Source of the DNA: Vicinamibacteria bacterium
GTDB taxonomy: Bacteria > Acidobacteriota > Vicinamibacteria > Vicinamibacterales > JAENWD01
Direction of reading: 5' to 3'
NCBI GenBank assembly: GCA_963763095.1
Contig: CAVXNR010000015.1
Coordinates: 73,865-137,864 of the forward strand
DNA length: 64,000 nt
The notes under the pieces are model-generated. The model made no database searches. It was not told the origin of the DNA and saw only the letters and a program-made list of their open reading frames with translations. Positions within the stretch are counted from its first letter, which is position 1, and each line of letters begins with the position of its first letter. Shown here piece after piece: positions 1 through 49,100 of the stretch. A program made the translations under genes and the position numbers.

Positions 1-416
1 CGCGGCCCCGCGAGGACGTCGTCTGGGAGCCGGGCGCTCTGCGCGGCGTCGAGCCGTCCCGTGGCGGTTGCGAGCGCCGTGGTGACTTCGGCGAGGAGGC
101 GTTCGGCGCGGCTTTGCGCCGAGGCACGGCCGGTCGCGGCCTCGCGGGCGGCGCTTTGCGCACGCTCACGGCTGTCGAGCGCATGGTTGAGCGCGAGGCG
201 GTAGTCACGCTGGGTGGCCGCGGCGTCCGCCTGCGCGAGGGCCTTCACGGCCGCCCCGAGTTCAGCGGCGGCATAGCGCTCGGCTCCCGCGGCGCGAGCC
301 GCATCGATGGCACCCTGCGCCTGGTGCATCTCCTTGTTCGGCGGCTCGGCACACGCGCCGGCAGCAAGGGCGAGCGCGAGCGTCAGAACGTGAGTTGCAC
401 GTCGTACGGGGAGCAT
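1..416 (-). CDS. putative lipoprotein, DUF4398-like (N-terminal 138 codons; C-terminus off the left edge)
   Basis: Not in the ORF track because no stop lies in the window. The reverse strand from ATG at 416 reads MLPVRRATHVLTLALALAAGACAEPPNKEMHQAQGAIDAARAAGAERYAAAELGAAVKALAQ... This is a signal peptide ending in a Cys (lipobox-like), followed by an Ala-rich helical region like DUF4398 lipoproteins. Confidence 0.5.
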   Translation of the reverse strand, partial: MLPVRRATHVLTLALALAAGACAEPPNKEMHQAQGAIDAARAAGAERYAAAELGAAVKALAQADAAATQRDYRLALNHALDSRERAQSAAREAATGRASAQSRAERLLAEVTTALATATGRLDAAQSARLPDDVLAGP

Positions 417-500
417 CGGCGCCAGTATACGCAACACGCGCGGCGAGTTCACGGATCCGACGGCGTGACCTGCACGCAAGCCGGGAACGCGGAACGGAAG

Positions 501-1172
501 ATGAAGGACGTCCCGCCGAATGACCGTCCGCGCGAGAAGCTCGCGCGGGTTGGCGCCGCGGCCCTCGGTGACAACGAACTCGTCGCCCTGGTGCTCGGGC
601 ACGGGACGTCACGCGCCGATGCACTGACGCTGGCGAACGCACTCCTGGCCTGTGCGGGCGGAGTGCGAGGGCTCGCGCGTGCCGGCCTGGCACAGGTGCT
701 TGCCGTGCCGGGCGTGGGCGCCGCGCATGCTGCGCGGATGCTCGCGGCCATCGAGCTGGGGCGGCGCGCCGTCCTGCAGCCCCGCGACGCCCGCGCGCGG
801 TTCAACGCACCAGACGATCTCGCCCGTTTTCTCGTGCCCCAGTTCGGGTGGCGGCCAGTCGAGCACTTCGGGGCGCTCCTGCTCGACGGGCGCAACCGGC
901 TGTTGCGGACGGCGGTAGTCTCGGTCGGAACACTCGACGCCAGCGTGATCCACCCACGCGACATCTTTCGCGAAGCCGCCCTGGAGATCGCGGCCGGGGT
1001 CGTGCTGTTTCACAACCACCCGTCCGGAGACCCGACGCCCAGCCCGGAGGACGTGCTCATCACGCAGCGCATGGTCCACGCCGGAGTGGTCATGGGGATC
1101 GAGGTGCTGGATCACCTGGTGCTTGCGGAGACCACCTACTTCAGCTTTCGGGAGAACCGGCAGCTGACCTGA
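501..1172 (+). CDS. radC: RadC/UPF0758 family JAB-domain protein
   Basis: C-terminal 223 aa of ORF 114..1172. It reads MKDVPPNDRPREKLARVGAAALGDNELVALVLGHG and carries the JAB/MPN motif HNHPSGDPTPSPED. Start set at ATG 501; the upstream part of the ORF looks like non-coding read-through. Confidence 0.85.
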   Translation: MKDVPPNDRPREKLARVGAAALGDNELVALVLGHGTSRADALTLANALLACAGGVRGLARAGLAQVLAVPGVGAAHAARMLAAIELGRRAVLQPRDARARFNAPDDLARFLVPQFGWRPVEHFGALLLDGRNRLLRTAVVSVGTLDASVIHPRDIFREAALEIAAGVVLFHNHPSGDPTPSPEDVLITQRMVHAGVVMGIEVLDHLVLAETTYFSFRENRQLT

Positions 1173-1263
1173 CCCGCCGCGACCGCGCCGTCGGTGCCCG
1201 CCAACCACGCCATCAGGTAAGATCAATCGTTTATGGTCGCCGCCGGTGACCGGACACCTCCGT

Positions 1264-2682
1264 ATGAAGCTGTTGTATTTCGACTGTTTCAATGGCGCCT
1301 CGGGCGACATGATCCTGGGTGCCCTGCTCGACGCGGGGCTCCCGCTGGAGGACCTCCGCCGCGCGCTGGGGAGCCTCGGCATCGGCGAGTACGAAGTGGC
1401 CGCTGAGCGGGTGCTGCGGGCGGGGGTGTCGGCAACGAAGTTCCATCTGATCGAGCGAGGCGGCGAGGACGGGTCCGCCAGAACTGAAGTCCCGGCGCCA
1501 CATTCGCAGGCGCATCAGCACGAGCACGCTGACTCGCACACGCACGGCGTCGCACCCGCTCATGCCGGGAGTGAAGGCGTGGCACCACATTCGCACGTGC
1601 ACGTGCACGCGCACACCCACTCGCACTCCCACGACGGGGTCGCGCATGCTCACGCTGGGACTGAGGTCCCAGCGCCTCATTCGGAGTTGCACGACCACAC
1701 TCACCTGCACCCGCACTCACACCGCAGCCTGCCTGAGATCCTCGCGCTCATCGAGCGGTCGGCCATTCCGCCGGCAGGACGGGCGCGCGCGCGGCAGCTG
1801 TTCGAGCGGCTCGCCGAGGCCGAAGCGGCGATTCATCAGATGCCCGTCGAGCGCGTGCACCTGCACGAGGTCGGGGCCCTCGATTCCATCATCGACATCG
1901 TCGGCGCGGTCTTCGCGATCGAATGGTTCGGCGCCGGGCGGGTGGTGGTGTCACCGCTCAATGTCGGCGGAGGGATGGTGCGATCGGCGCACGGCCTGTT
2001 CCCGGTGCCGGCGCCCGCGACGATGCGGCTCCTCGGCGACGCGCCGATCTATTCGAGCGGCGTGCAGGCCGAGCTCCTGACGCCCACCGGCGCGCTGCTT
2101 CTGACCGGCCATGCCGACGCGTTCGGGCCCGTGCCGCCGATGCGCGTGGACGGTGTCGGCTACGGCGCCGGAACCCGCGAGCTTGCCGGCACGCCAAACG
2201 TGTTGCGTGTGCTCGTCGGCGAGAGCACCGCGGAATCCACGACCGAGCGGATCGTCGTGCTCGAGTGCGAGATAGACGACATGAACCCCCAGATCTTCGG
2301 CGTGCTGATGGACCGGCTGTACGCGGCGGGCGCGCTGGAGGTGTACTACTCCGCCGTCCAGATGAAGAAGAATCGACCTGGGACCCTGATCACCGTGCTG
2401 GCCGCGCCGGATCGGCGGGAGGAGCTGGCCGGGGTCATGTTCCGTGAGTCCACGACAATCGGCGTTCGCTATCACGATGTGGATCGCGAGCGGCTCGAGC
2501 GCGAGGTGGTCTCCCTCGAGACGCCGTTCGGCACGATTCGATTCAAGGTCGCCCGCCGGGCGGGTGCCGTCGTGAACGCGTCGCCCGAGTTCGAGGATTG
2601 TGTCCGCGTCGCCAGCGACCGTGGCATTCCCGTCAAGGACGTGCAGGCGGCAGCGATGCACGCCTGGCTGAGCAGAGTGTGA
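1264..2682 (+). CDS. larC: LarC (DUF111) nickel-insertion protein for the nickel-pincer cofactor, with a long His-rich insert
   Basis: MKLLYFDCFNGASGDMILGALLDAGL... matches DUF111/LarC over the full length. A ~90-aa His-rich stretch is present (HSQAHQHEHADSHTH...HVHVHAHTHSHSH...HDHTHLHPHSH). Start at ATG 1264 inside ORF 1246..2682. Confidence 0.85.
   Translation: MKLLYFDCFNGASGDMILGALLDAGLPLEDLRRALGSLGIGEYEVAAERVLRAGVSATKFHLIERGGEDGSARTEVPAPHSQAHQHEHADSHTHGVAPAHAGSEGVAPHSHVHVHAHTHSHSHDGVAHAHAGTEVPAPHSELHDHTHLHPHSHRSLPEILALIERSAIPPAGRARARQLFERLAEAEAAIHQMPVERVHLHEVGALDSIIDIVGAVFAIEWFGAGRVVVSPLNVGGGMVRSAHGLFPVPAPATMRLLGDAPIYSSGVQAELLTPTGALLLTGHADAFGPVPPMRVDGVGYGAGTRELAGTPNVLRVLVGESTAESTTERIVVLECEIDDMNPQIFGVLMDRLYAAGALEVYYSAVQMKKNRPGTLITVLAAPDRREELAGVMFRESTTIGVRYHDVDRERLEREVVSLETPFGTIRFKVARRAGAVVNASPEFEDCVRVASDRGIPVKDVQAAAMHAWLSRV
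1478..1680 (+). repeat. three in-frame copies of a REP-like hairpin element inside larC (1478-1503, 1564-1590, 1654-1680)
   Basis: The copies are ccagaaCTGAAGtCCCgGCgCCACAT, GCCGGGAGTGAAGGCGTGGCACCACAT and GCTGGGACTGAGGTCCCAGCGCCTCAT. All are read in the same frame as A(R/G)(T/S)E(V/G)(P/V)APHS. Confidence 0.6.
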
Positions 2683-2713
2683 GCCTCCCGCTGGAATCGT
2701 GTAGTTGCCCAAG

Positions 2714-4780
2714 ATGTCTTTTTTCCTGACCACCGCGATCGACTACGTCAACAGCCGTCCGCATCTCGGCACCGCCTACGAGAAGGTCACCACGGATGTG
2801 ATCGCGCGGTTCAAACGCCTGACGGGTGTCGAGACTCATTTCCTGATGGGCAACGACGAGCACTCGCAGAACGTCTTCAAGCGCGCGCGGGAGCTGGGCG
2901 AGGATCCGCTCGCCTACTGCGACCGCATGGAGACCGTGTTCCGCGGCGTCTGGGGACGGCTGTCGATTTCCTTCGACGACTTCATCCGCACAACCGAACC
3001 GCGTCACAAGGCGGGCGTACAAAAGCTCGTGAACGCCTGCCGGGCGAACGGCGACGTGTACGAGGGCCAGTACGAAGGCTACTACTGTGTCTCCTGCGAG
3101 GCGTTCAAGCAGGATAAGGATCTAGTCGACGGCAAATGCGCCGTGCACCTGACGCAACCCGAGTGGATCCGGGAAAAGAACCACTTCTTCCGCCTGTCGC
3201 GCTATCAGCAGCCGCTGCTCGAGCACTACGCCGCGCACCCGGAGTTCATCCAGCCGGAAGTACGCCGCAACGAAATCCTGCGCCTGGTCGAGGCGGGCCT
3301 CGAGGACATCTCCATCAGCCGCGCCGGACAGTCCTGGGGCATCCCGCTGCCCTTCGAGGAGAGCAGCGTTGTCTACGTGTGGTTCGACGCCCTCATCAAC
3401 TACGCGTCCGCGGTGGGCTACGGCACCGACGACGAGCAGTTTGCGCGGTGGTGGCCGGCCGACCTCCACGTGGTCGGCAAGGACATCACGCGATTCCACT
3501 GTGTCGTCTGGCCCGCCATGCTCATGAGCGCGGGAGTACCCCTTCCGAAACAGGTGTTCGGCCACGGGTGGGTGCACTTCAAGGGCCACAAGATGAGCAA
3601 GACGCTCGGCACCGTCGTCGATCCGCTCGACGCCGCCGAGCGGCTCGGGGCCGACCCGCTGCGCCTGTATCTCGTCAAGGAGATCCCGTTCGGGGGCGAC
3701 GGTGACTTCTCGTGGGAGCGGTTCGAGGAGCGGTACAACGTCGATCTCGCGAACAACCTGGGCAACCTCGTGAGCCGCATCACGACCATGGCCGAGAAGT
3801 ATCGCGGGCTGCAGGTGGCGCCCACGACGCTCGGGTCGGGACGCCTGGCCGACGTGGCGACCGACGTGCTCGCGACCTACATCGATGCCATGGAGCGCTT
3901 TGCCCTCCATGAAGGCGCGTTCGCGGCCTTCCGGCTCGTCGACGCGTGCAACGAGTTCATCGCGGAGTCGGCGCCGTGGGCCCTTGCGCGCGACCCCGCC
4001 GATGCCGAGCGCCTGTCGCAGGTGCTCTACGATGTCGCCGAAGCGCTGCGAATCGTGGGGATCCTGCTGCAGCCTGTGATGCCGACGGCCGGCGTTGAGA
4101 TCCTCCGCCGCGCGGGAGAGACCCGGCCGGTCGGCGAGCTGCGGCTTGCGCGCGATGCAGCATGGATGTCCGACAGGCCGCGCACGCTCGTAAAAGGCCC
4201 GAACCTCTGGCCGCGCCTCGAAGCGGCGCGGCCCGCGACCAGCCCCCCCTCGACCCCGAGAACGGAGACGCGCTTGAGCGACACGCCCGACTGGAAACCA
4301 AATGCGCCGGCACCGGATGCGCCACTCTCCGCCGGGACTGAAGTCCCGGCTCCACATCAGAGTGGTCTGTCCGCTGCGACTGAAGGCTCGGCTCCACAAC
4401 CCTCGGCTCCGCCGGCAGCCCCGCAAGCGGCGGCCGGACAACCCGCCGGCGGAGAGCGAGTGTCCATCGACGAGTTCGCGAAGATCGAGCTGCGCGTCGC
4501 CAAGGTCCTCACCGCGGAGCGCGTGCCCAAGTCGAAGAAGCTGATGAAGCTCTGGATCGATCTCGGCAACGAGCAGCGCACCCTCGTCGCTGGCATCGCC
4601 GAGGCCTACGAACCCGAGCAACTCGTCGGCCGCACGATCGTGATCGTCGCGAACCTGAAGCCTGCCAAGCTGATGGGCATCGAATCAAACGGCATGATCC
4701 TCGCGGCCTCGGGAGAGGACGGCCGCCCGCTGCTCTTGTCGGCCGAAGACGGCGCCGAGCCGGGGATGCGGGTCAAATGA
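2714..4780 (+). CDS. metG: methionyl-tRNA synthetase with C-terminal Trbp111/EMAP-type tRNA-binding domain
   Basis: MSFFLTTAIDYVNSRPHLGTAYEKV... is class I MetRS. It has a KMSKT loop (HKMSKTLG) and a C-terminal ISIDEFAKIELRVAKVL...ANLKPAKLMGIESNGMILAAS domain. A low-complexity Pro/Ala linker joins the two parts. Start at ATG 2714. Confidence 0.93.
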   Translation: MSFFLTTAIDYVNSRPHLGTAYEKVTTDVIARFKRLTGVETHFLMGNDEHSQNVFKRARELGEDPLAYCDRMETVFRGVWGRLSISFDDFIRTTEPRHKAGVQKLVNACRANGDVYEGQYEGYYCVSCEAFKQDKDLVDGKCAVHLTQPEWIREKNHFFRLSRYQQPLLEHYAAHPEFIQPEVRRNEILRLVEAGLEDISISRAGQSWGIPLPFEESSVVYVWFDALINYASAVGYGTDDEQFARWWPADLHVVGKDITRFHCVVWPAMLMSAGVPLPKQVFGHGWVHFKGHKMSKTLGTVVDPLDAAERLGADPLRLYLVKEIPFGGDGDFSWERFEERYNVDLANNLGNLVSRITTMAEKYRGLQVAPTTLGSGRLADVATDVLATYIDAMERFALHEGAFAAFRLVDACNEFIAESAPWALARDPADAERLSQVLYDVAEALRIVGILLQPVMPTAGVEILRRAGETRPVGELRLARDAAWMSDRPRTLVKGPNLWPRLEAARPATSPPSTPRTETRLSDTPDWKPNAPAPDAPLSAGTEVPAPHQSGLSAATEGSAPQPSAPPAAPQAAAGQPAGGERVSIDEFAKIELRVAKVLTAERVPKSKKLMKLWIDLGNEQRTLVAGIAEAYEPEQLVGRTIVIVANLKPAKLMGIESNGMILAASGEDGRPLLLSAEDGAEPGMRVK
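4331..4399 (+). repeat. two in-frame copies of the REP-like hairpin element inside the metG linker (4331-4357, 4373-4399)
   Basis: GCCGGGACTGAAGTCCCGGCTCCACAT has a 7-bp stem CCGGGAC/GTCCCGG. A decayed copy is GCTGCGACTGAAGGCTCGGCTCCACAA. They are translated as AGTEVPAPH and AATEGSAPQ. Confidence 0.6.
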
Positions 4781-4808
4781 GTTGACCGTTGACCGTTGAC
4801 CGTTGACG
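4781..4808 (+). repeat. heptanucleotide tandem array (GTTGACC)x4
   Basis: GTTGACC GTTGACC GTTGACC GTTGACG starts at the base after the metG TGA. Confidence 0.95.
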
Positions 4809-4886
4809 CATGCCTGTCGTGCGTGCCGAGCCGCGGACGGCACCGATCGTGATGATCGCCTCCAGCGCGCGAGGAGGCGCACCGAT

Positions 4887-5255
4887 ATGTCTGGACACAG
4901 CAGCTTTCGAGACCTGGTGGCATGGCAGATTTCGATGACGCTAGCAGAGAAGGCGTACGCATTTGCAGCCTCGTTGCCCGCCAGTGAACGCTTCGAGCTC
5001 GGATCGCAAATTCGCCGCGCGGCTGTGTCGATTCCGTCGAATGTGGCGGAAGGGCAACGGCGCCCACCGATGGTGTTCAAGCATTACCTCGGGATCTCGT
5101 TAGGCTCCCTCGCGGAGCTCGAAACGCAGTTCGAGCTTGCTCAGCGCCTGAACTTGGCGGATCCCCCAGACGACACCTGGGAGTGCGTGGGCCGCTGCCA
5201 GCAGGTCCTATACGGACTCGTGAGGTCGGTGCGTGCGACGACTGCGCACCGTTGA
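4887..5255 (+). CDS. four-helix-bundle protein (23S rRNA intervening-sequence protein / Avd-like family)
   Basis: MSGHSSFRDLVAWQISMTLAEKAYAFAASLPASERFELGSQIRRAAVSIPSNVAEGQRR...SLGSLAELETQFELAQRL is typical of the TIGR02436/PF05635 family. GAGGAGG lies 9 nt upstream of ATG 4887. Confidence 0.85.
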   Translation: MSGHSSFRDLVAWQISMTLAEKAYAFAASLPASERFELGSQIRRAAVSIPSNVAEGQRRPPMVFKHYLGISLGSLAELETQFELAQRLNLADPPDDTWECVGRCQQVLYGLVRSVRATTAHR

Positions 5256-5380
5256 CGGTCCGGGCTTCGTTGACCGTGCGCCGTTGATCGTTAACCGTTG
5301 AGTCCGTGGTCAACGGTCAGCGCGCAACGGTGAACGGTACGGGACGATAAACGGTGAACGGTAAACGGTAAACGGTAAAC
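5251..5380 (+). repeat. degenerate GTTGAC(N) units followed by inverted GGT(N)AAC heptamer arrays
   Basis: Forward units are at 5251, 5269 and 5283-5303 (GTTGATC GTTAACC GTTGAGT). Reverse-complement units are at 5309-5336 (GGTCAAC GGTCAGC GCGCAAC GGTGAAC) and 5353-5380 (GGTGAAC GGTAAAC x3). The array ends 4 nt before the tatD start. Confidence 0.9.
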
Positions 5381-5384
5381 GAAG

Positions 5385-6164
5385 TTGATCGATTCCCACT
5401 GCCACCTCGCGGATGCCGTGTTCGCGCCCGACCTGGATGGCGTGCTGGCGCGCGCGCGGGAGGCGGGGCTGACCCATGTGCTCTGCATCCTTGCCGCGGG
5501 AGACGCGGTCGAGCAGGCGCAGGCGGCACGTGTCGCCGCGCAGTTCCCAGGTGCGCGGTTTGCGGCCGGCGTGCACCCGCATCAGGCGCATGAGCACGCA
5601 CAGGCGGGGCGCGCCGCAGCGCTCGTGCGTGCGGCGTGTGCCGGCAACCCGCTGGTGCGCGCCGTCGGCGAGATCGGGCTCGACTTCCACTACGACTTCT
5701 CCCCGCGCGACGTGCAGCGGGCCGTGTTTGCCGAGCAGGTGGCGCTCGCCCGCGAGCTCGATCTTCCCGTGATCATCCATACGCGTGAGGCGGAGGACGA
5801 TACATTCGACATCCTGCGAAGGGAAGGACACGGGGAGGTCAGAGGTGTCTTCCACTGCTTCACCGGTGATGTGCGGCTGGCACGCCGCGCGCTCGATCTC
5901 GGGTTCCTTCTGTCGTTCGCCGGCATTCTTACCTTTCCAAAGGCCGTGAGCATCCGCGAGGCGGCCGCCATCGTGCCGGACGATCGGCTGCTGGCCGAAA
6001 CCGACAGCCCGTTTCTCGCGCCGGTTCCGCATCGCGGGAAGCGGAACGAACCGGCCCTGGTGCGTCGCGTCATCGAGACGCTAGCCATTGTCCGCGCGTC
6101 GACGGTGGACGCGATTAATGCCCAGATCACTACGAATTTCCTCCATCTGACGCGGGATGCGTGA
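5385..6164 (+). CDS. tatD: TatD-family metal-dependent hydrolase/DNase
   Basis: MIDSHCHLADAVF..., GEIGLDFHYD, VIIHTREA and ETDSPFLAPVPHRGKRNEP are TatD signatures. TTG start at 5385. Confidence 0.88.
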   Translation: MIDSHCHLADAVFAPDLDGVLARAREAGLTHVLCILAAGDAVEQAQAARVAAQFPGARFAAGVHPHQAHEHAQAGRAAALVRAACAGNPLVRAVGEIGLDFHYDFSPRDVQRAVFAEQVALARELDLPVIIHTREAEDDTFDILRREGHGEVRGVFHCFTGDVRLARRALDLGFLLSFAGILTFPKAVSIREAAAIVPDDRLLAETDSPFLAPVPHRGKRNEPALVRRVIETLAIVRASTVDAINAQITTNFLHLTRDA

Positions 6165-6215
6165 GCCGCCGTTGCGTTGACACCCCGCGCAAACCTGTGG
6201 TCAGATTGACGAGCT

Positions 6216-10846
<4,631 letters not shown>

Positions 10847-10892: not shown

Positions 10893-12262
10893 ATGAAATC
10901 GCGCATTCTCGTCATCGATGATGAGGCGGCCATCCGCGAGTCGCTGCGGATGATTCTCGAGTACGAGGGCTACGAGTTCCTCGGCGCCGCCACCGGGCAG
11001 GACGGCCTGGCGATGGTCGATCGTGAGAACCCGGACCTCGTGTTCCTCGACATCAAGATGCCTGGGATGGATGGTCTCGAGGTGCTGCAGCGCATCAAGG
11101 CCGCGAACGAGACCGTACCCGTCGTGATGATTTCCGGGCACGCGACCGTGACGACGGCGGTGGATGCGACGAAGCTGGGGGCGCTGGACTTCATCGAGAA
11201 GCCGCTGGCGAGCGAGCGGGTGCTCGTGACGATCCGCAACGCCATCGATCGCAGCCGTCTCGCCGACGAGAACCGCTCCCTCAAGCGCGTCGTCGAAGTG
11301 CGGCACCAGATTGTGGGGGAGAGCCCGCACCTGAAGAAGGTGATGGACGCGATCCGCCGTGCCGCGCCGACCAACGCGACGGTGCTGATCACCGGCGAGA
11401 GCGGCGTCGGCAAGGAGCTGGTCGCCAGGGCCATCCACCGCAACAGCCTGCGGAGCCGCGAGCGATTCGTGCAGGTGAACTGTGCGGCGATTCCGGACGA
11501 CCTGATCGAATCCGAGCTGTTCGGCCACGAGAAGGGGTCGTTCACGGGGGCGACCGAGAAACAGATCGGCAAGTTCGAGCAGGCAGACAAGGGCACCATC
11601 TTCCTCGACGAGGTCGGGGACATGAGCCTGAAAACGCAGGCCAAGGTGCTGCGCGTGCTGCAGGAAGGGGAGGTCGAGCGGCTCGGCTCGGCCCGCACCA
11701 TCAAGGTCGACGTGCGCGTGATCGCGGCCACCAACAAGAATCTGGAGGAGGAGATCGAGAAGGGCACGTTCCGGGAAGATCTGTATTCCGCCTCGCGGTC
11801 ATTCCGATTTACGTGCCGCCACTCCGGGAGCGGAAGGACGACATCCCGCTGCTCGTGCGGCACTTCGCGGACCTGTTCGCCCGCGACAACAACTTCCGTC
11901 CGAAACGGGTGACGCCTGCGGCCATGGACGTTCTGCAGCGACACCGCTGGAAGGGCAACATCCGGGAGCTGCGGAACACTGTCGAGCGGTTGATCATCAT
12001 GACCCCGGCCGACAGCGTCGACCTGCCGGACCTGCCGGAGAGCATCCGCGTTGACGGGCCGTCACGTGGGCCGGATAATGAGACGGTCAGGGCCGGCACG
12101 CTGCGGGAGCACAAGGAAGTGTCGGAACGTGCCTTCCTGGTCCAGAAGCTCCGCGAAACCGGCTGGAACATCTCGAAGACGGCCGAGCTCATCGACACGC
12201 CGCGCAGCAATCTGTACAAGAAACTGGAGCAGTACAACATCAAGCAGGAATCAGACGGATAG
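10893..12262 (+). CDS. sigma54-dependent Fis-family response regulator (NtrC/AtoC-like); frame broken near 11787
   Basis: The receiver domain has ILVIDDE and [14 protein letters not shown]. The AAA+ domain has [14 protein letters not shown] and FLDEVGDM. The HTH is [23 protein letters not shown] 10812..11912 and ORF 11813..12262 join as FREDLY|[23 protein letters not shown] if one nt is restored in ctgtat-tccgc. Confidence 0.88.
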
Positions 12263-13820: not shown

Positions 13821-13929
13821 ACAGGCTGCAGGCGGCAGGCGGCAGGCTGTGTCTGGCTTTCAGGCTGAAGTGGCGGGAAAGTCAACTATGGTTGACCTGA
13901 TGCCCGACAGGCCCGCCGTCTGCCGCCTG
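13821..13929 (+). repeat. inverted heptamer arrays (GCAGGCG-type) around a spacer containing a GTCAAC/GTTGAC palindrome
   Basis: ACAGGCT GCAGGCG GCAGGCG GCAGGCT lies at 13821-13848. The imperfect complement CGCCGTCTGCCGCCTG lies at ~13911-13929. GTCAACtatgGTTGAC lies at 13881-13896. Confidence 0.75.
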
Positions 13930-14951: not shown

Positions 14952-15017
14952 ATGTGGGGCAGGCCTTCAGGCCTGCTAGAGCGCACCGATTTGCAGGGCT
15001 GAAGCCCTGCCCCACAT
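14952..15017. repeat. inverted pair of REP-like elements (probable bidirectional terminator between convergent genes)
   Basis: ATGTGGGGCAGGCCTTCAGGCCTGC lies at 14952-14976. GCAGGGCTGAAGCCCTGCCCCACAT lies at 14993-15017. Each is itself a hairpin, and the two are mutually complementary. Confidence 0.85.
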
Positions 15018-15110: not shown

Positions 15111-15145
15111 GAGGCTGCAGGCTGTAGCCCGAAGGCTGCAGCCTG
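15111..15145. repeat. heptamer tandem array (NAGGCTG)x5
   Basis: GAGGCTG CAGGCTG TAGCCCG AAGGCTG CAGCCTG ends 2 nt from the stop of the OMP gene. Confidence 0.8.
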
Positions 15146-19052: not shown

Positions 19053-19411
19053 GGGTGCCGGACACGACCGACGGGTTGCCACGGCGGGAGCGTCGCACGT
19101 TTTCACGCGTGCACTACGCGCGCGGGATCCTGCCGCCGGGCGTGCGCGTGCAGCCGGCCCGCGAGGTCATTGCCGTGAACCTCTCGCGCGGGGGCGTGCT
19201 GGTGGAGAGTGCGTGGCGCTTTCGGCCCGGCGGCAGCGTCACCGTGCACGTCCAGCAGGGAACCGGCGGGTTCCAGGTGCGCGGGGCCGTCGAGCGATGC
19301 CTGGTGCACGCTCTCGAGCGGGGCGGGGGTGTGCGCTACCGCGCCGCGATCAGGTTCGAGGCGCCGCTCGTCGGCGATCCCCCGACCGATGCGTTGTACG
19401 GCGCCGGCTGA
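19037..19411 (+). CDS. PilZ-domain protein
   Basis: RRERRTFSRV...VNLSRGGVLVES matches the PilZ RxxxR and (D/N)xSxxG motifs. ATG 19037 lies within ORF 18575..19411. Confidence 0.7.
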   Translation: MAHTVGVPDTTDGLPRRERRTFSRVHYARGILPPGVRVQPAREVIAVNLSRGGVLVESAWRFRPGGSVTVHVQQGTGGFQVRGAVERCLVHALERGGGVRYRAAIRFEAPLVGDPPTDALYGAG

Positions 19412-19419
19412 ACTCAGCG

Positions 19420-19652
19420 CACGTGAGCCGTGATCGTGTGCGATCCGCCGGGGCGAGGCGTATAGTGGCACGCGATCAGGAGACCGCGTGGATCGACGAA
19501 CGTTCGTGCGCCTGCTGGGCGGCGGTGCCCCTCGCGACGCCGCGAGACACAGACAAACGTCCGCGCGTGCGCGTGGTCAGTCAGTATCGCCCTTTCGTGA
19601 CCCCAGGCATGCCGGGCCGCTCCCCGGGGCTCGTCGTCGCCGTGGGCTCGGA
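19420..19652 (+). repeat. copy 1 of a ~230-280 bp diverged direct repeat (pilZ-downstream spacer plus DUF362 5' end)
   Basis: It aligns with 20872-21120 at roughly 85-90% identity by eye, with one indel block. Confidence 0.85.
19488..19652 (+). pseudogene. truncated duplicate of the DUF362 gene 5' end (TAT signal plus first ~35 mature codons)
   Basis: VDRRTFVRLL.. then, after a 1-nt shift, AAVPLATPRDTDKRPRVRVVSQYRPFVTPGMPGRSPGLVVAVGSD. Homology to the full gene at 20942.. stops at 19652. Confidence 0.7.
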
Positions 19653-19797
19653 CCCGCGTGGCGGCCTCGCTCCGCGTGTGGGCCAGATGTCTACGTCCCA
19701 CCGATCAGCCGTTGGGCTGCACTGCCCGACATCTACACGTTCGCGAAATTCTCTCGATAAGATGCGCGCGCGTCAGTTCACTTTCAGGAGGTCGCTC

Positions 19798-20811: not shown

Positions 20812-20843
20812 ACCATGGTGGACGAAGGGGATCGACGTCAGGT

Positions 20844-21120
20844 GCCACGACGGGAGCGTCGCACTTTTTCACGCGTGTGATCCGTGGTCGTGTGCGATTC
20901 GCCGGCGCAAGGCGTATAGTGGCACGCGATCAGGAGACCGCGTGGATCGACGAACCTTCGTGCGCCTGCTGGCGGCGGTACCCCTCGCGACACCGCGAGA
21001 CACACCGAGAGACACACACGACGTCCCGCCGCGTGCGCGTGGTCAGTCAGTATCGCCCTTCCGTGACCCCAGGCATGCCGGGCCGCTATCCCGGACGCGT
21101 CGTCGCCGTGGGCTCGGACC
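20844..21120 (+). repeat. copy 2 of the direct repeat, beginning with a 34-bp fragment of the pilZ 5' end
   Basis: 20844-20877 (gccacgacgggagcgtcgcactttttcacgcgtg) matches pilZ 19078-19111. The rest matches 19424-19652. Confidence 0.85.
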
Positions 21121-30940: not shown

Positions 30941-31125
30941 GCAGGGCTGAAGCCCTGCCCCACATGGCAGTGATCAGCCCCGCCCCGGCAGGACTCGCAG
31001 CCTGCCTGCGGTGACGCTGTGGCGCCAGGTCCGATGTGGGGCAGGGCTTCAGCCCTGCATGCCGGATGTGGGGCAGGCTTCAGCCCTGCATGCTGGATGT
31101 GGGGCAGGGCTTCAGCCCTGCATGC
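30941..31125. repeat. REP-like element cluster: one reverse copy plus three tandem forward copies
   Basis: GCAGGGCTGAAGCCCTGCCCCACAT lies at 30941-30965. GATGTGGGGCAGGGCTTCAGCCCTGCATGC-type copies lie at 31033-31062, 31064-31093 and 31095-31125, with a period of 31-32 nt. The cluster sits between convergent genes. Confidence 0.9.
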
Positions 31126-33610: not shown

Positions 33611-33710
33611 TCCAGGCTCCAGGCTACAGCCTGCAGGCTGCAGAACTGTCGGGCCGGCGAGCCTTGAGCCCAACAGGCCGGCAGCCCGTAGTCTGCAGCC
33701 CGCCGCCTGA
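33611..33710. repeat. heptamer tandem array (TCCAGGC-type x5) followed by related degenerate GCAGCC units
   Basis: TCCAGGC TCCAGGC TACAGCC TGCAGGC TGCAGAA lies at 33611-33645. ggcagcccgtagtctgcagcccgccgcctg lies at ~33679-33708. Confidence 0.75.
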
Positions 33711-46116: not shown

Positions 46117-49100
46117 ATGGGCATCAATCGCATCGGATTTTCTAACTGCCCTTACCTTCACGCTCGCCGTATCGCTTCCGGCTGCCGGGGCCACTATCAC
46201 CGTGGAGGCCGGCGGAAACCTCCAGGCCGCCCTCGACAACGCCGCCGCAGGCGACACGATCCTCTTGCAGGCAGGCGCGACGTTCATCGGGAACTTCGTC
46301 GTCCGGAGCGGAAAGGTCTCCCTGACCATCCGGTCGTCTGCCCCCGACACGCTCCTGCCCGCCGCCGGGCAGCGCACCTCGCCCCAGGTACTCGGCGTAC
46401 CTGCCCAAGCTGAAGTCGCCGAACAACGTCGCGGCGTTGACCATTCAACCTGGCGCGTCCTACATCACCCTGCTGCACCTCGAAGTGCTGCCAGCGTCCA
46501 ACGGCAGCTCGAGCCTGATCGAGCTCGGTTACGTCGACTCCCGCCAGACCACCATCGCACAGGCACCGCACCACCTCGTGCTCGACCGGCTGCTCGTGAC
46601 GATTCCCGCAACCCAGGCGCAGAGGCGTGGGATCGCGCTGAACAGCGCGAGCACCCAGGTGCTCGGGTGCCATCTGGCCGGCTTGAAGTTCGCGGGCGCG
46701 GATTCGCAGGCCATTGCGGGCTGGAACGGGCCGGGGCCCTTCGTGATCGAGAACAACTATCTCGAAGGCGCTGGTGAGAACCTGATGTTCGGCGGATCCG
46801 ATCCGACCATACCCGGGCTCGTGCCCACGGGCATCCAGATCCGCCGGAACCACTTCTCGAAGCCGATCGCCTGGAAGGGCAGTTCCTGGACGGTGAAGAA
46901 CATTCTCGAGCTGAAGAATGCACAGGACGTGGTCATCGAGGCCAACCTGCTCGAGTACAACTGGCTCGCCGCGCAGCAGGGGTACTCGGTTCTGTTCACG
47001 CCCCGCAATCAGTACGGTGGCAACAATGACACCGTGGTGCAGCGGGTGAAGTTCGTCAACAACAAGGTCCGGCACGTCTCGTCGGTGTTCAACATCCTCG
47101 GCCGGGATAACAATTTCCCCAGCCAGCTGACCAACGACATCGAAATCCGGAACAACGTCTTCGAAGACGTGTCCAAGGCGGCCTACGGCGGTTCGGGACG
47201 CATGCTGCTCATCGACGGCGGCGACAACATCCGGGTCATCAACAACACGTCGCTCAACGCCGGCACCGCCATCTACGCCACCGGTCATGCGGTGACCGGG
47301 TTCCTGCTGGAGAACAACATCTTCGATTACGGCGACTTCGGCATCATGGGTGACGGTGCCTCGCCAGGCAAGGGCACCCTCACGACCTGGTTCCCCGGCT
47401 CCGTCGTGCTGGGCAACGTGATACCCGACAACACGCAGCCGTGGACGTTCCCCGTTGGCAACTCGTACCCGGTGAACTGGGCTGCGGTGGGGTTGGTGGA
47501 TCTGGCCGGCGGGAACTACCGCCTCGCCCCGACGAGCGCCTACATCGCCGCCGGCACGGGTGGCACAACGCCGGGCGCGGACGTGGACGCGCTCGAGACT
47601 GCGTTGTCCGGCGGGCCGCCCATCCCGCCGGCGTGCACATTCTCGGTGGCGCCCTCCTCGCACGACTCTCCGGCGGGCGGCGACACATTCAGCGTCGCCG
47701 TGACCGCCAGCGACGCCTCGTGCGCCTGGAGTGCGTCAGCTGCGCCCTGGATCACCCCGTCACCGACCGGCGGCAGGGGATCGGGCACCGTCGTGCTGAC
47801 GGTCAGCCCGAATGCCACCACGGCACCGCGCTCGGCCAGCGTGATGGTAGCCGACAGCGCCGTAGCCGTCACCCAGGCGCCGGTCTGCGCGTTCACCCTG
47901 GCGCCCTCGTCGCACGACTCTCCCGCGGGCGGCGACACCTTCAGCGTCGGCGTGACCGCCAGCGACGCCTCGTGCGCCTGGAGTGTGTCAGCTGCGCCCT
48001 GGGTCACCCCGTCACCGACCGGCGGCACGGGATCGGGCACCGTCGTGCTGACGGTCAGCCCGAATGCCACCACGGCACCGCGCTCGGCCAGCGTGATGGT
48101 AGCCGACAGCGCCGTAGCCGTCACCCAGGCGCCGGTCTGCGCGTTCACCCTGGCGCCCTCGTCGCACGACTCTCCCGCGGGCGGCGACACCTTCAGCGTC
48201 GGCGTGACCGCCAGCGACGCCTCGTGCGCCTGGAGTGTGTCAGCTGCGCCCTGGGTCACCCCGTCACCGACCGGCGGCACGGGATCGGGCACCGTCGTGC
48301 TGACGGTCAGCCCGAATGCCACCACGGCACCGCGCTCGGCCAGCGTGATGGTAGCCGACAGCGCCGTAGCCGTCACCCAGGCGCCGGTCTGCGCGTTCAC
48401 CCTGGCGCCCTCGTCGCACGACTCTCCGGCGGGCGGCGACACCTTCAGCGTCGCCGTGACCGCCAGCCACGCCTCGTGCGCCTGGAGTGTGTCAGCTGCG
48501 CCCTGGATCACCCCGTCAGCGACCGGCGGCACGGGATCGGGCACCGTCGCGCTGACGGTCAGCCCGAATGCCACCACGGCACCGCGCTCGGCCAGCGTGA
48601 TGGTAGCCGACAGCGCCGTAGCCGTCACCCAGGCTGCGCCGGACGTGGCGCCGGTTTGCGCGTTCACCCTGGCGCCCTCGTCGCACGACTCTCCGGCGGG
48701 CGGCGACACATTCAGCGTCGCCGTGACCGCCAGTCACGCCTCGTGCGCCTGGAGTGTGTCAGCTGCGCCCTGGATCACCCCGTCAGCGACAGGCGGCACG
48801 GGATCGGGCACCGTCGTGCTGACGGTCAGCCCGAATGCCACCACGGCACCGCGCTCGGCCAGCGTGATGATAGCCGGCAGCGCCGTAGCGGTCACCCAGG
48901 CTGCGCCGGACGTGGCGCCGGTCTGCGCGTTCACCCTGTCGCCCTCTAATGTGAAGGTCCTGGCTGGTGGCACAACGTTCGCCGCGACTCTCACGGCCTC
49001 CGCCCCCTCGTGCGGCTGGATCGCCAGCGCAAACGCCGGGTGGGTCAGCTTGTCATCGACAAGCGGTGCGGGCACCGCGACCCTCTCCGTCACCGTCGCA

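Follow-up and report, generated by a model that had tools for sequence, protein, structure and literature searches.

A palindromic repeat of the GTAG superfamily, probably fixed in frame in methionyl-tRNA synthetase and LarC of a Vicinamibacteria clade

The 64,000-nt stretch of Vicinamibacteria bacterium DNA analyzed here (contig CAVXNR010000015.1, positions 73,865 to 137,864; hereafter, the window) carries a short palindromic unit encoding the peptide AGTEVPAPH within metG, the gene for methionyl-tRNA synthetase (MetRS), and related units within larC, the gene for a nickel-insertion protein. The window is high-G+C DNA, placed in the Vicinamibacteria/Vicinamibacterales group (Acidobacteriota) by its nearest named proteins and genomes. 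In all probability, this unit is a repetitive extragenic palindromic (REP) element of the GTAG superfamily, in a GTGG-headed form, that was fixed in frame at two permissive sites in the ancestor of a Vicinamibacteria clade. In sequence, it matches a dispersed REP family; it is also phylogenetically restricted, is placed in linkers, and varies in copy number from one ortholog to the next. The genes and coding copies are listed below in window coordinates.

2714..4780, + strand: metG, methionyl-tRNA synthetase, 688 amino acids, assigned from its translation, from Pfam tRNA-synt_1g and tRNA_bind, and from a 100% identical database protein, P0001
4214..4489 (approximate bounds), + strand: Pro/Ala-rich low-complexity linker that joins the MetRS core to the tRNA-binding domain at the C terminus, from translation, Pfam, and ortholog comparison
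4325..4357, + strand: metG REP-derived unit, copy 1, CTCTCC GCCGGGAC TGAA GTCCCGGC TCCACAT, matching the sister-genome REP consensus at 32 of 33 positions
4367..4399, + strand: metG decayed tandem copy 2, CTGTCC GCTGCGAC TGAA GGCTCGGC TCCACAA, 42 nt downstream of copy 1
1246..2682, + strand: larC, nickel-insertion protein, the second host gene, Pfam PF01969
1471..1503, + strand: LarC REP-derived copy 1, GGGTCC GCCAGAAC TGAA GTCCCGGC GCCACAT, 90% identical to the metG copy
1558..1590, + strand: LarC copy 2, strongly decayed, GCC GGG AGT GAA GGC GTG GCA CCA CAT, from repeat comparison
1648..1680, + strand: LarC copy 3, GCTCAC GCTGGGAC TGAG GTCCCAGC GCCTCAT, with an intact stem

The source of the unit is found outside genes. 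One genome per species was scanned with a pattern, GGNACNGARGTNCCNGCNCCNCAY, in which all third codon positions were left free, so that recurrence of the peptide could be told from recurrence of the DNA. Among the stretches listed, which numbered at least 77, about a third came from a single metagenome-assembled genome (MAG), Vicinamibacteria bacterium MFD02840.bin.3.332 (CAVUCH01), in which at least 27 copies of a ~33-nt sequence were found on 11 contigs within the loci fetched. These copies are nearly always the same DNA, (C/G)TGTCC-GCCGG[G/A/C]AC-TGAA-GT[C/T/G]CCGGC-(T/G)CCACA(T/C), with the consensus (C/G)TGTCCGCCGGGACTGAAGTCCCGGCTCCACAT against which the metG unit was scored, and the 24-nt core of that unit is identical to eight extragenic copies. 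It is therefore the DNA, and not the peptide alone, that recurs, as a comparison of nucleotide and peptide conservation proposed with the original prediction had been meant to establish.

The CAVUCH01 copies that were sampled are extragenic, many of them lying between convergent genes, or are at gene boundaries, with the LarC copy in locus L020 as the sole exception. These assignments rest on stop-codon positions and flank translations, with changes in GC phase as an adjunct, that classifier being crude enough to misclassify low-complexity controls. At the stem position left free by the pattern, the copies covary as GGG/CCC, GGA/TCC, and GGC/GCC (GGGAC/GTCCC, GGAAC/GTTCC, and GGCAC/GTGCC), with six compensated pairs and two mismatched. 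Inverted doublets are present in L003 (394/461), L027 (1015/1113), L073 (5860/5902), and L082 (995-1048), as well as in the window (14952-15017). The tail CCAC-AT, found in all copies, is the GTGG head read on the opposite strand, and distant Acidobacteriota loci contain REPs of the form stem-CTGAAG-stem with the canonical CTAC/GTAG tag. By these features of sequence, the copies in CAVUCH01 can be recognized as a typical REP/REPIN population. Extragenic members of the family also occur in L082 and L086, just downstream of the neighboring DUF4398 gene.

The first metG copy encodes L-S-A-G-T-E-V-P-A-P-H and forms a perfect 8-bp hairpin at 4331-4350, with arms GCCGGGAC (4331-4338) and GTCCCGGC (4343-4350) enclosing a TGAA loop. 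The original prediction had placed GCCGGGACTGAAGTCCCGGCTCCACAT at 4331-4357, which is exact, and had given it a perfect stem of 7 bp, which is one pair too short. Folding of the mRNA segment gives this hairpin a predicted free energy (dG) of -17.1 kcal/mol (z -4.46). The decayed neighbor that had been noticed at 4373-4399 (GCTGCGACTGAAGGCTCGGCTCCACAA) is likewise present: the second copy encodes L-S-A-A-T-E-G-S-A-P-Q, shares 25 of 30 nucleotides with the first over the 30-nt register that starts at 4370, and can still pair at six of the eight stem positions if GU pairs are counted, while its predicted fold (dG -5.3, z +0.8) contains no REP-type hairpin. Translation of the linker with both units reads LSAGTEVPAPHQSGLSAATEGSAPQP.

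In LarC, the three units encode G-S-A-R-T-E-V-P-A-P-H, A-G-S-E-G-V-A-P-H, and A-G-T-E-V-P-A-P-H, in the contexts ...SARTEVPAPHS..., ...AGSEGVAPHS..., and ...AGTEVPAPHS..., so that the peptides claimed for both proteins are found as described. All three lie inside an 87-90-nt tandem repeat of a His-rich insert. The stem is partly decayed in copy 1, whereas that of copy 3 (9 bp, 1653-1674) is intact through a synonymous compensatory change from C-G to T-A and yields a hairpin of dG -17.7 kcal/mol (z -3.4); strong hairpins in this genome are accordingly those of metG copy 1 and LarC copy 3, and not those of metG copy 2 or LarC copies 1 and 2. The near-identity of the DNA in the two genes, which the original prediction had read as a sign of insertion, amounts to 27 of 30 nucleotides between metG copy 1 and LarC copy 1, the upstream TCC codon included. 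The 27-mer GCCGGGACTGAAGTCCCGGCTCCACAT has two matches at three or fewer mismatches in the window and none in 100 shuffles. Half of the codons in the metG motif (5/10) end in A or T, compared with 14.5% gene-wide, which fits a foreign, noncoding origin. The agreement in reading frame between the two genes is weak evidence, with five of six frames open. An Rfam scan of positions 1-8000 at E <= 1 returned nothing on the element, its lone hit being weak, unrelated, and at 7886, and Tandem Repeats Finder did not flag the region either.

The surroundings of the first metG unit show a further feature. An additional 8-bp inverted repeat, GCCACTCT at 4321-4328 and AGAGTGGT at 4359-4366, brackets the unit and lengthens the predicted mRNA helix; it is particular to this genome, with no conservation in L078, L081, or L020. 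The wider metG mRNA fold, 4290-4420, is unremarkable (z -1.7).

Both sites of insertion are of a kind likely to tolerate added residues, as had been supposed. The two copies in MetRS correspond to residues 540-548 and 554-562, which puts them after the catalytic/anticodon part and ahead of the tRNA_bind domain (residues 593-685, Pfam), in a linker whose length and sequence are hypervariable across orthologs. LarC is ~83 residues longer than the PF01969 profile, and the extra residues are the His-rich insert. Neither metG nor larC has an internal stop across the elements, and both score as full-length Pfam families. As metG is essential and presumably single-copy, and the insert is kept across the clade, it would follow that the decorated MetRS is made and functional.

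Orthologs place the motif within one clade. Among 120 MetRS orthologs, it occurs only at identities of about 80% or more, in one to three copies with a 14-codon period, and in every motif-bearing sequence the insert directly follows ...KPNAPAP(D/E)APL. At identities of 78% or less, the linker sequence is unrelated, and the motif is absent from about 100 such distant orthologs; the LarC of the distant locus L085 similarly has a His-rich insert that lacks the motif. Within the clade, the motif is shared at 82-93% MetRS identity, and L078, L080, and L086 each have three metG copies at a 42-nt period. The gene order RadC-LarC-MetG is kept in L020, L078, L081, and L085. Locus L020, from CAVUCH01, is a syntenic RadC-LarC-MetG-TatD region in which LarC and MetG each carry the motif: over the aligned residues, its MetRS and that of the window share 92% identity, the L020 protein having AGTEVAAPH with a decayed stem, and its LarC has three units. 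Since both genes of L020 carry the motif, the insertions predate the split of these species, and the comparison supports insertions that would be ancestral to the Vicinamibacteria clade rather than recent in this genome. The family is also present between genes in relatives that keep the motif (CAVUCH01, L082, and L086), whereas conservation of the peptide in relatives without the family would have spoken for a protein-level origin.

Two observations on individual LarC loci can be added. In unit 3 of L020 LarC (7295-7324, - strand), the palindrome is perfect over 13 bp (GTGGCGCCGGGAC TGAA GTCCCGGCGCCAC), compared with the usual 8-bp stem of the family. In L082 (2573-3969), LarC is called as two fragments of 69 and 172 amino acids around the His-rich, REP-containing region, which may be due to a frameshift or an assembly error at the repeats or may be a genuine disruption.

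The arrangement of the copies suggests how their number may have changed. The spacers between metG copies share ...GGT (C/G)TG TCC, a pattern that favors duplication of a 42-nt stretch over a series of insertions, and the extra copies most likely arose when units of 42 nt in metG and 87-90 nt in LarC were duplicated in tandem and then decayed. The subvariant is constant by gene across species, GGCGCCACAT in LarC and GGCTCCACAT in metG, and each of the two is found among extragenic REPs, which makes two separate ancestral insertions likelier than transfer between the genes.

The window has intergenic REPs of its own, in two places.

14952..15017, unstranded: REPIN-like inverted doublet formed by the sibling REP variant, ATGTGGGGCAGGCCTTCAGGCCTGC ... 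GCAGGGCTGAAGCCCTGCCCCACAT, intergenic
30941..31121, unstranded: four sibling-variant REP copies in a cluster (30941-30965, 31034-31058, 31064-31093, and 31097-31121, the third having an indel), intergenic, between convergent genes

These six copies (GCAGGGCTGAAGCCCTGCCCCACAT; general form GCAGG(G/C)CTGAAG(C/G)CCTGCCCCACAT) have in common with the coding element the CTGAAG loop and the CCACAT tail, and the stem differs by two indels plus substitutions. The coding copies would on this comparison be a sibling stem variant of the window's intergenic REPs and not the same variant. The original prediction had spoken of the same element and of an intergenic REP family; the REP nature is borne out, and identity with the variant found between genes in this window is not.

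It can be proposed that REP copies landed in the MetRS interdomain linker and in the LarC His-rich insert in the common ancestor of the clade, possibly mobilized by a RAYT-type HUH transposase. The unit of 33 nt equals 11 codons, by which the frame would have been kept, and the orientation and frame would have given L-S-A-G-T-E-V-P-A-P-H, a proline-rich peptide, small and polar, of a kind tolerable in a flexible linker. Thereafter, the inserted DNA would have evolved as ordinary linker sequence, with the 42-nt (metG) and 87-90-nt (larC) units duplicated in tandem or lost, to leave one to three copies per ortholog, and with single copies decaying.

Several findings weigh against this account. 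The 64-kb window holds no extragenic copy of the exact coding stem variant, the only extragenic form in it being the sibling. A tblastn search of the window and all loci, together a small part of either genome, with one approximate E. coli RayT query gave a best E of 0.6; a weak match in L076 falls in an open reading frame (ORF) that is not RAYT-like, and the ORFs beside the window REP clusters include no obvious RAYT candidate. The exact boundaries and any target site of the insertions are unreadable, as the linker cannot be aligned with insert-free orthologs. Finally, some stems look as they might if the hairpin itself were under selection: in L083/L089 metG, a G-C pair has been replaced by A-T at a synonymous site, the stem of LarC copy 3 in the window is restored by its synonymous compensation, and the LarC stem in CAVUCH01 is perfect over 13 bp.

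The last of these points leads to an alternative that we consider unlikely, in which the hairpin is a selected nucleic acid element that acts as a ribosome pause aiding folding of the MetRS core, in mRNA decay, or as a DNA site for a REP-binding protein. The perfect 8-bp stem is kept in the window, L078, L079, L081, L082, and L086, and identical DNA is found in the window, L078, L079, L081, and L086; the two strong predicted folds given above and the synonymous compensations count in favor of such selection. In the two closest comparisons, moreover, the A/T-ending codons of the motif are kept in five of five cases against a background of 48-59%, and in 55 loci the density of perfect hairpins in MetRS linkers is ~10 times that of the core, an enrichment confounded by the GCN/CCN-rich (Ala/Pro codon) composition of the linkers. 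The formal tests do not bear selection out. Over 29 distinct coding copies, stem positions are paired in 86.6% of cases, compared with 85.9% after shuffling, and 130 of 500 shuffles were as good, which is nonsignificant; the synonymous variability of the ten motif codons among nine close orthologs is ordinary, with 18% of the gene's 10-codon windows as low or lower. The stem has decayed in CAVUCH01 metG, in L084, and in every second copy, and the compensated variants (GGA/TCC) pre-exist in the REP population, so that they could have been inherited with the insert. A contrast between the motif and the 11 upstream codons at synonymous sites, tried as a further indicator, was lost on gene-wide comparison. 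Because the formal tests of selection are negative and the compensated variants pre-exist among the REPs, the insert is treated here as a tolerated passenger that would now serve as linker sequence, a reading in which its neutrality is inferred.

Two other explanations concern the peptide and the number of events. If AGTEVPAPH had been selected in each protein independently for a function of the peptide, such as metal binding or interaction, the likeness of the DNA would be a by-product; the motif does end in His and lies inside the His-rich, Ni-binding region of LarC, and its first copy is fairly well conserved as protein across the clade. The same DNA is found in extragenic copies where no protein is made, its codons are of the rare A/T-ending type, and the identity runs on into the flanking TCC/CTGTCC bases. 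No MetRS ortholog at greater distance carries the motif, nor does L085, the single more distant LarC examined, and copies of the motif vary freely (AGTDVAAPH, AATEGSAPQ, and ADTAVPAPP, for example). A three-copy AGTEVPAPH query against a set of 5.8 billion proteins gave 396 word-sharing candidates, none of which scored at E <= 10. Independent selection of the peptide is thus largely refuted and is the least probable of the explanations weighed here; insertion of an element rather than convergence, as originally predicted, is favored by the match to extragenic REP DNA, the A/T-ending codons, and the absence from distant orthologs. A single insertion followed by ectopic gene conversion into the other gene, 2.8 kb away, fares little better and is very unlikely. 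The two genes are neighbors with a shared orientation, and their copies are 90% identical and in the same frame; the constant difference between GGCGCCACAT in LarC and GGCTCCACAT in metG in every species examined speaks against ongoing exchange, both subvariants exist among extragenic REPs, and flanking similarity ends at the REP unit. Conversion would in any case alter the count of insertion events and not the nature of the element.

Fixation of a REP in frame, the explanation preferred here, has precedents in two kinds of known system. Rickettsia palindromic elements (RPEs) are the classic in-frame palindromic insertions, found in many functional genes at surface or permissive positions, and were reportedly described by Ogata and coworkers in 2000. 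The present unit resembles them as an in-frame palindromic repeat at a permissive position that is compatible with protein function. It differs in its 33 nt and in the two genes seen to be hit, whereas RPEs (~100-150 nt for RPE-1) occupy many genes of AT-rich, obligate intracellular hosts.

A closer parallel is found among REPs themselves. GTAG/CGTC-tagged REPs have been identified inside ORFs of known proteins in several phyla, where they encode 7-30 residues, with examples catalogued in the genes for GlyRS-beta and IleRS, a GTGG variant of the GTAG tag reported in O. terrae, and a proposal that intragenic REPs are neutral as it is flexible linkers or loops that are hit (Di Nocera, De Gregorio & Rocco 2013, PMC3733652). 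Like the REPs of that survey, the present element is a palindrome of 20-40 nt with an end tetranucleotide tag, mostly extragenic, often in inverted dimers, and with a minority of copies within ORFs. Unlike them, it has a tag of GTGG followed by AT (ATGTGG...), is tandemly amplified within genes, and is common to a whole clade; neither its host lineage (uncultured Vicinamibacteria) nor its host genes (the metG linker and the larC insert) are in the survey. Compared with REPIN-RAYT systems (Bertels & Rainey 2011, PMC3116915; Nunvar 2010), the extragenic singlets and inverted doublets, the conserved head, the covarying stems, and the lineage-specific variants in close genomes (variant A in the window and variant B in CAVUCH01) are all familiar, whereas the finding here is one of fossilized intragenic copies and not of a mobile population.

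Taken feature by feature, the element is a short G+C-rich palindrome with a stable stem-loop, present in many dispersed and mostly extragenic copies in CAVUCH01 (at least 27) and as a sibling variant in six extragenic copies in the window, with a GTAG-type end tetranucleotide in the form GTGG, compensatory stem variation, and inverted doublets. Its coding copies lie wholly within conserved ORFs with the frame intact, match extragenic members at the DNA level, and have insert-free orthologs (MetRS below ~80% identity and L085 LarC). As far as sequence can decide, the case agrees with the intragenic REP class in every respect. Intragenic REPs, including those in tRNA synthetase genes, and RPEs have been described before, and the present case is a clear new example and not a new phenomenon.

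Other Acidobacteriota may have received comparable insertions in the same gene. MetRS linkers at 59-69% identity carry different GTAG-tagged REP hairpins, perfect and in frame, with stems unrelated to that of the window clade but the same tgaa/ttca loop: CCCGGGGGC-ttca-GCCCCCGGG followed by gctac in L093 (3522-3543), AGGCGGGTC-ttca-GACCCGCCT followed by ctac in L104 (1696-1717), and, in L145 (2775-2965), three tandem 22-residue units that each contain AGGCGGACC-tgaa-GGTCCGCCT. The L109 and L117 linkers have a further perfect hairpin, and closely similar REPs are present outside metG in L131 (8289-8350). These observations suggest that the MetRS linker may be a recurrent landing pad for REPs in Acidobacteriota. 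It is conceivable, if quite doubtful, that hairpins retained at such a landing pad also form a programmed structure at the domain boundary, as a translational pause or for mRNA processing; REPs would then contribute to an essential gene both new peptide for its linker and an RNA feature with a regulatory role.

Some further repeats were noted. The linker peptide PPAPSPQ(A/G)DG recurs in ~25 MetRS orthologs that cannot otherwise be aligned in their linkers. A perfect 9-bp palindrome (GGCTCCGTC...GACGGAGCC) encodes it in L085 (~11588-11623); the stem is kept in L167 (~10587) by a compensatory change from T-A to G-C and has no equivalent in L166 (~11627). No extra copies were found in 22-kb flanks, and the feature may be a functional peptide, a structured RNA, or an old repeat. 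In Campylobacterota (L001, L012, L043, and L044; Nitratifractor and Sulfurovum MAGs), a repeat of nearly the same form, GGGACTGAAGTCCC(A/T)GC(C/T)CCTCA(T/C), is found beside other hairpins such as GACGCGACTTCAGTCGCG; this appears to be a same-loop REP type in a phylum that is very distant. Within the window, a second family of short palindromic or low-complexity repeats resembling AGGCTGCAGGCTGTAGCCCGAAGGCTG occurs at 13823-13849, 15112-15138, and 33614-33640, one copy of which adjoins the REP doublet at 14952-15017. From 47626 to 48948, a unit of 252-267 nt is present five times in tandem, with 83-100% identity to the reference copy, and probably belongs to a gene for a repeat-domain protein. 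Collinear segments at 19077-19654 and 20843-21120, ~1.45-1.77 kb apart, are duplicated at 92-94% identity and represent a local duplication of a few hundred bases.

In conclusion, two housekeeping proteins, including an essential aminoacyl-tRNA synthetase, have in this well-documented case taken up a selfish or commensal palindromic repeat, with its family of origin identified and with orthologs that have zero, one, two, or three copies at varied stages of decay. As it stands, current understanding is left unchanged by this example. For annotation, it serves as a warning that a short "peptide motif" conserved in a linker may be a fossil at the level of DNA, and it illustrates how interdomain linkers and low-complexity inserts can be built from REP sequence.

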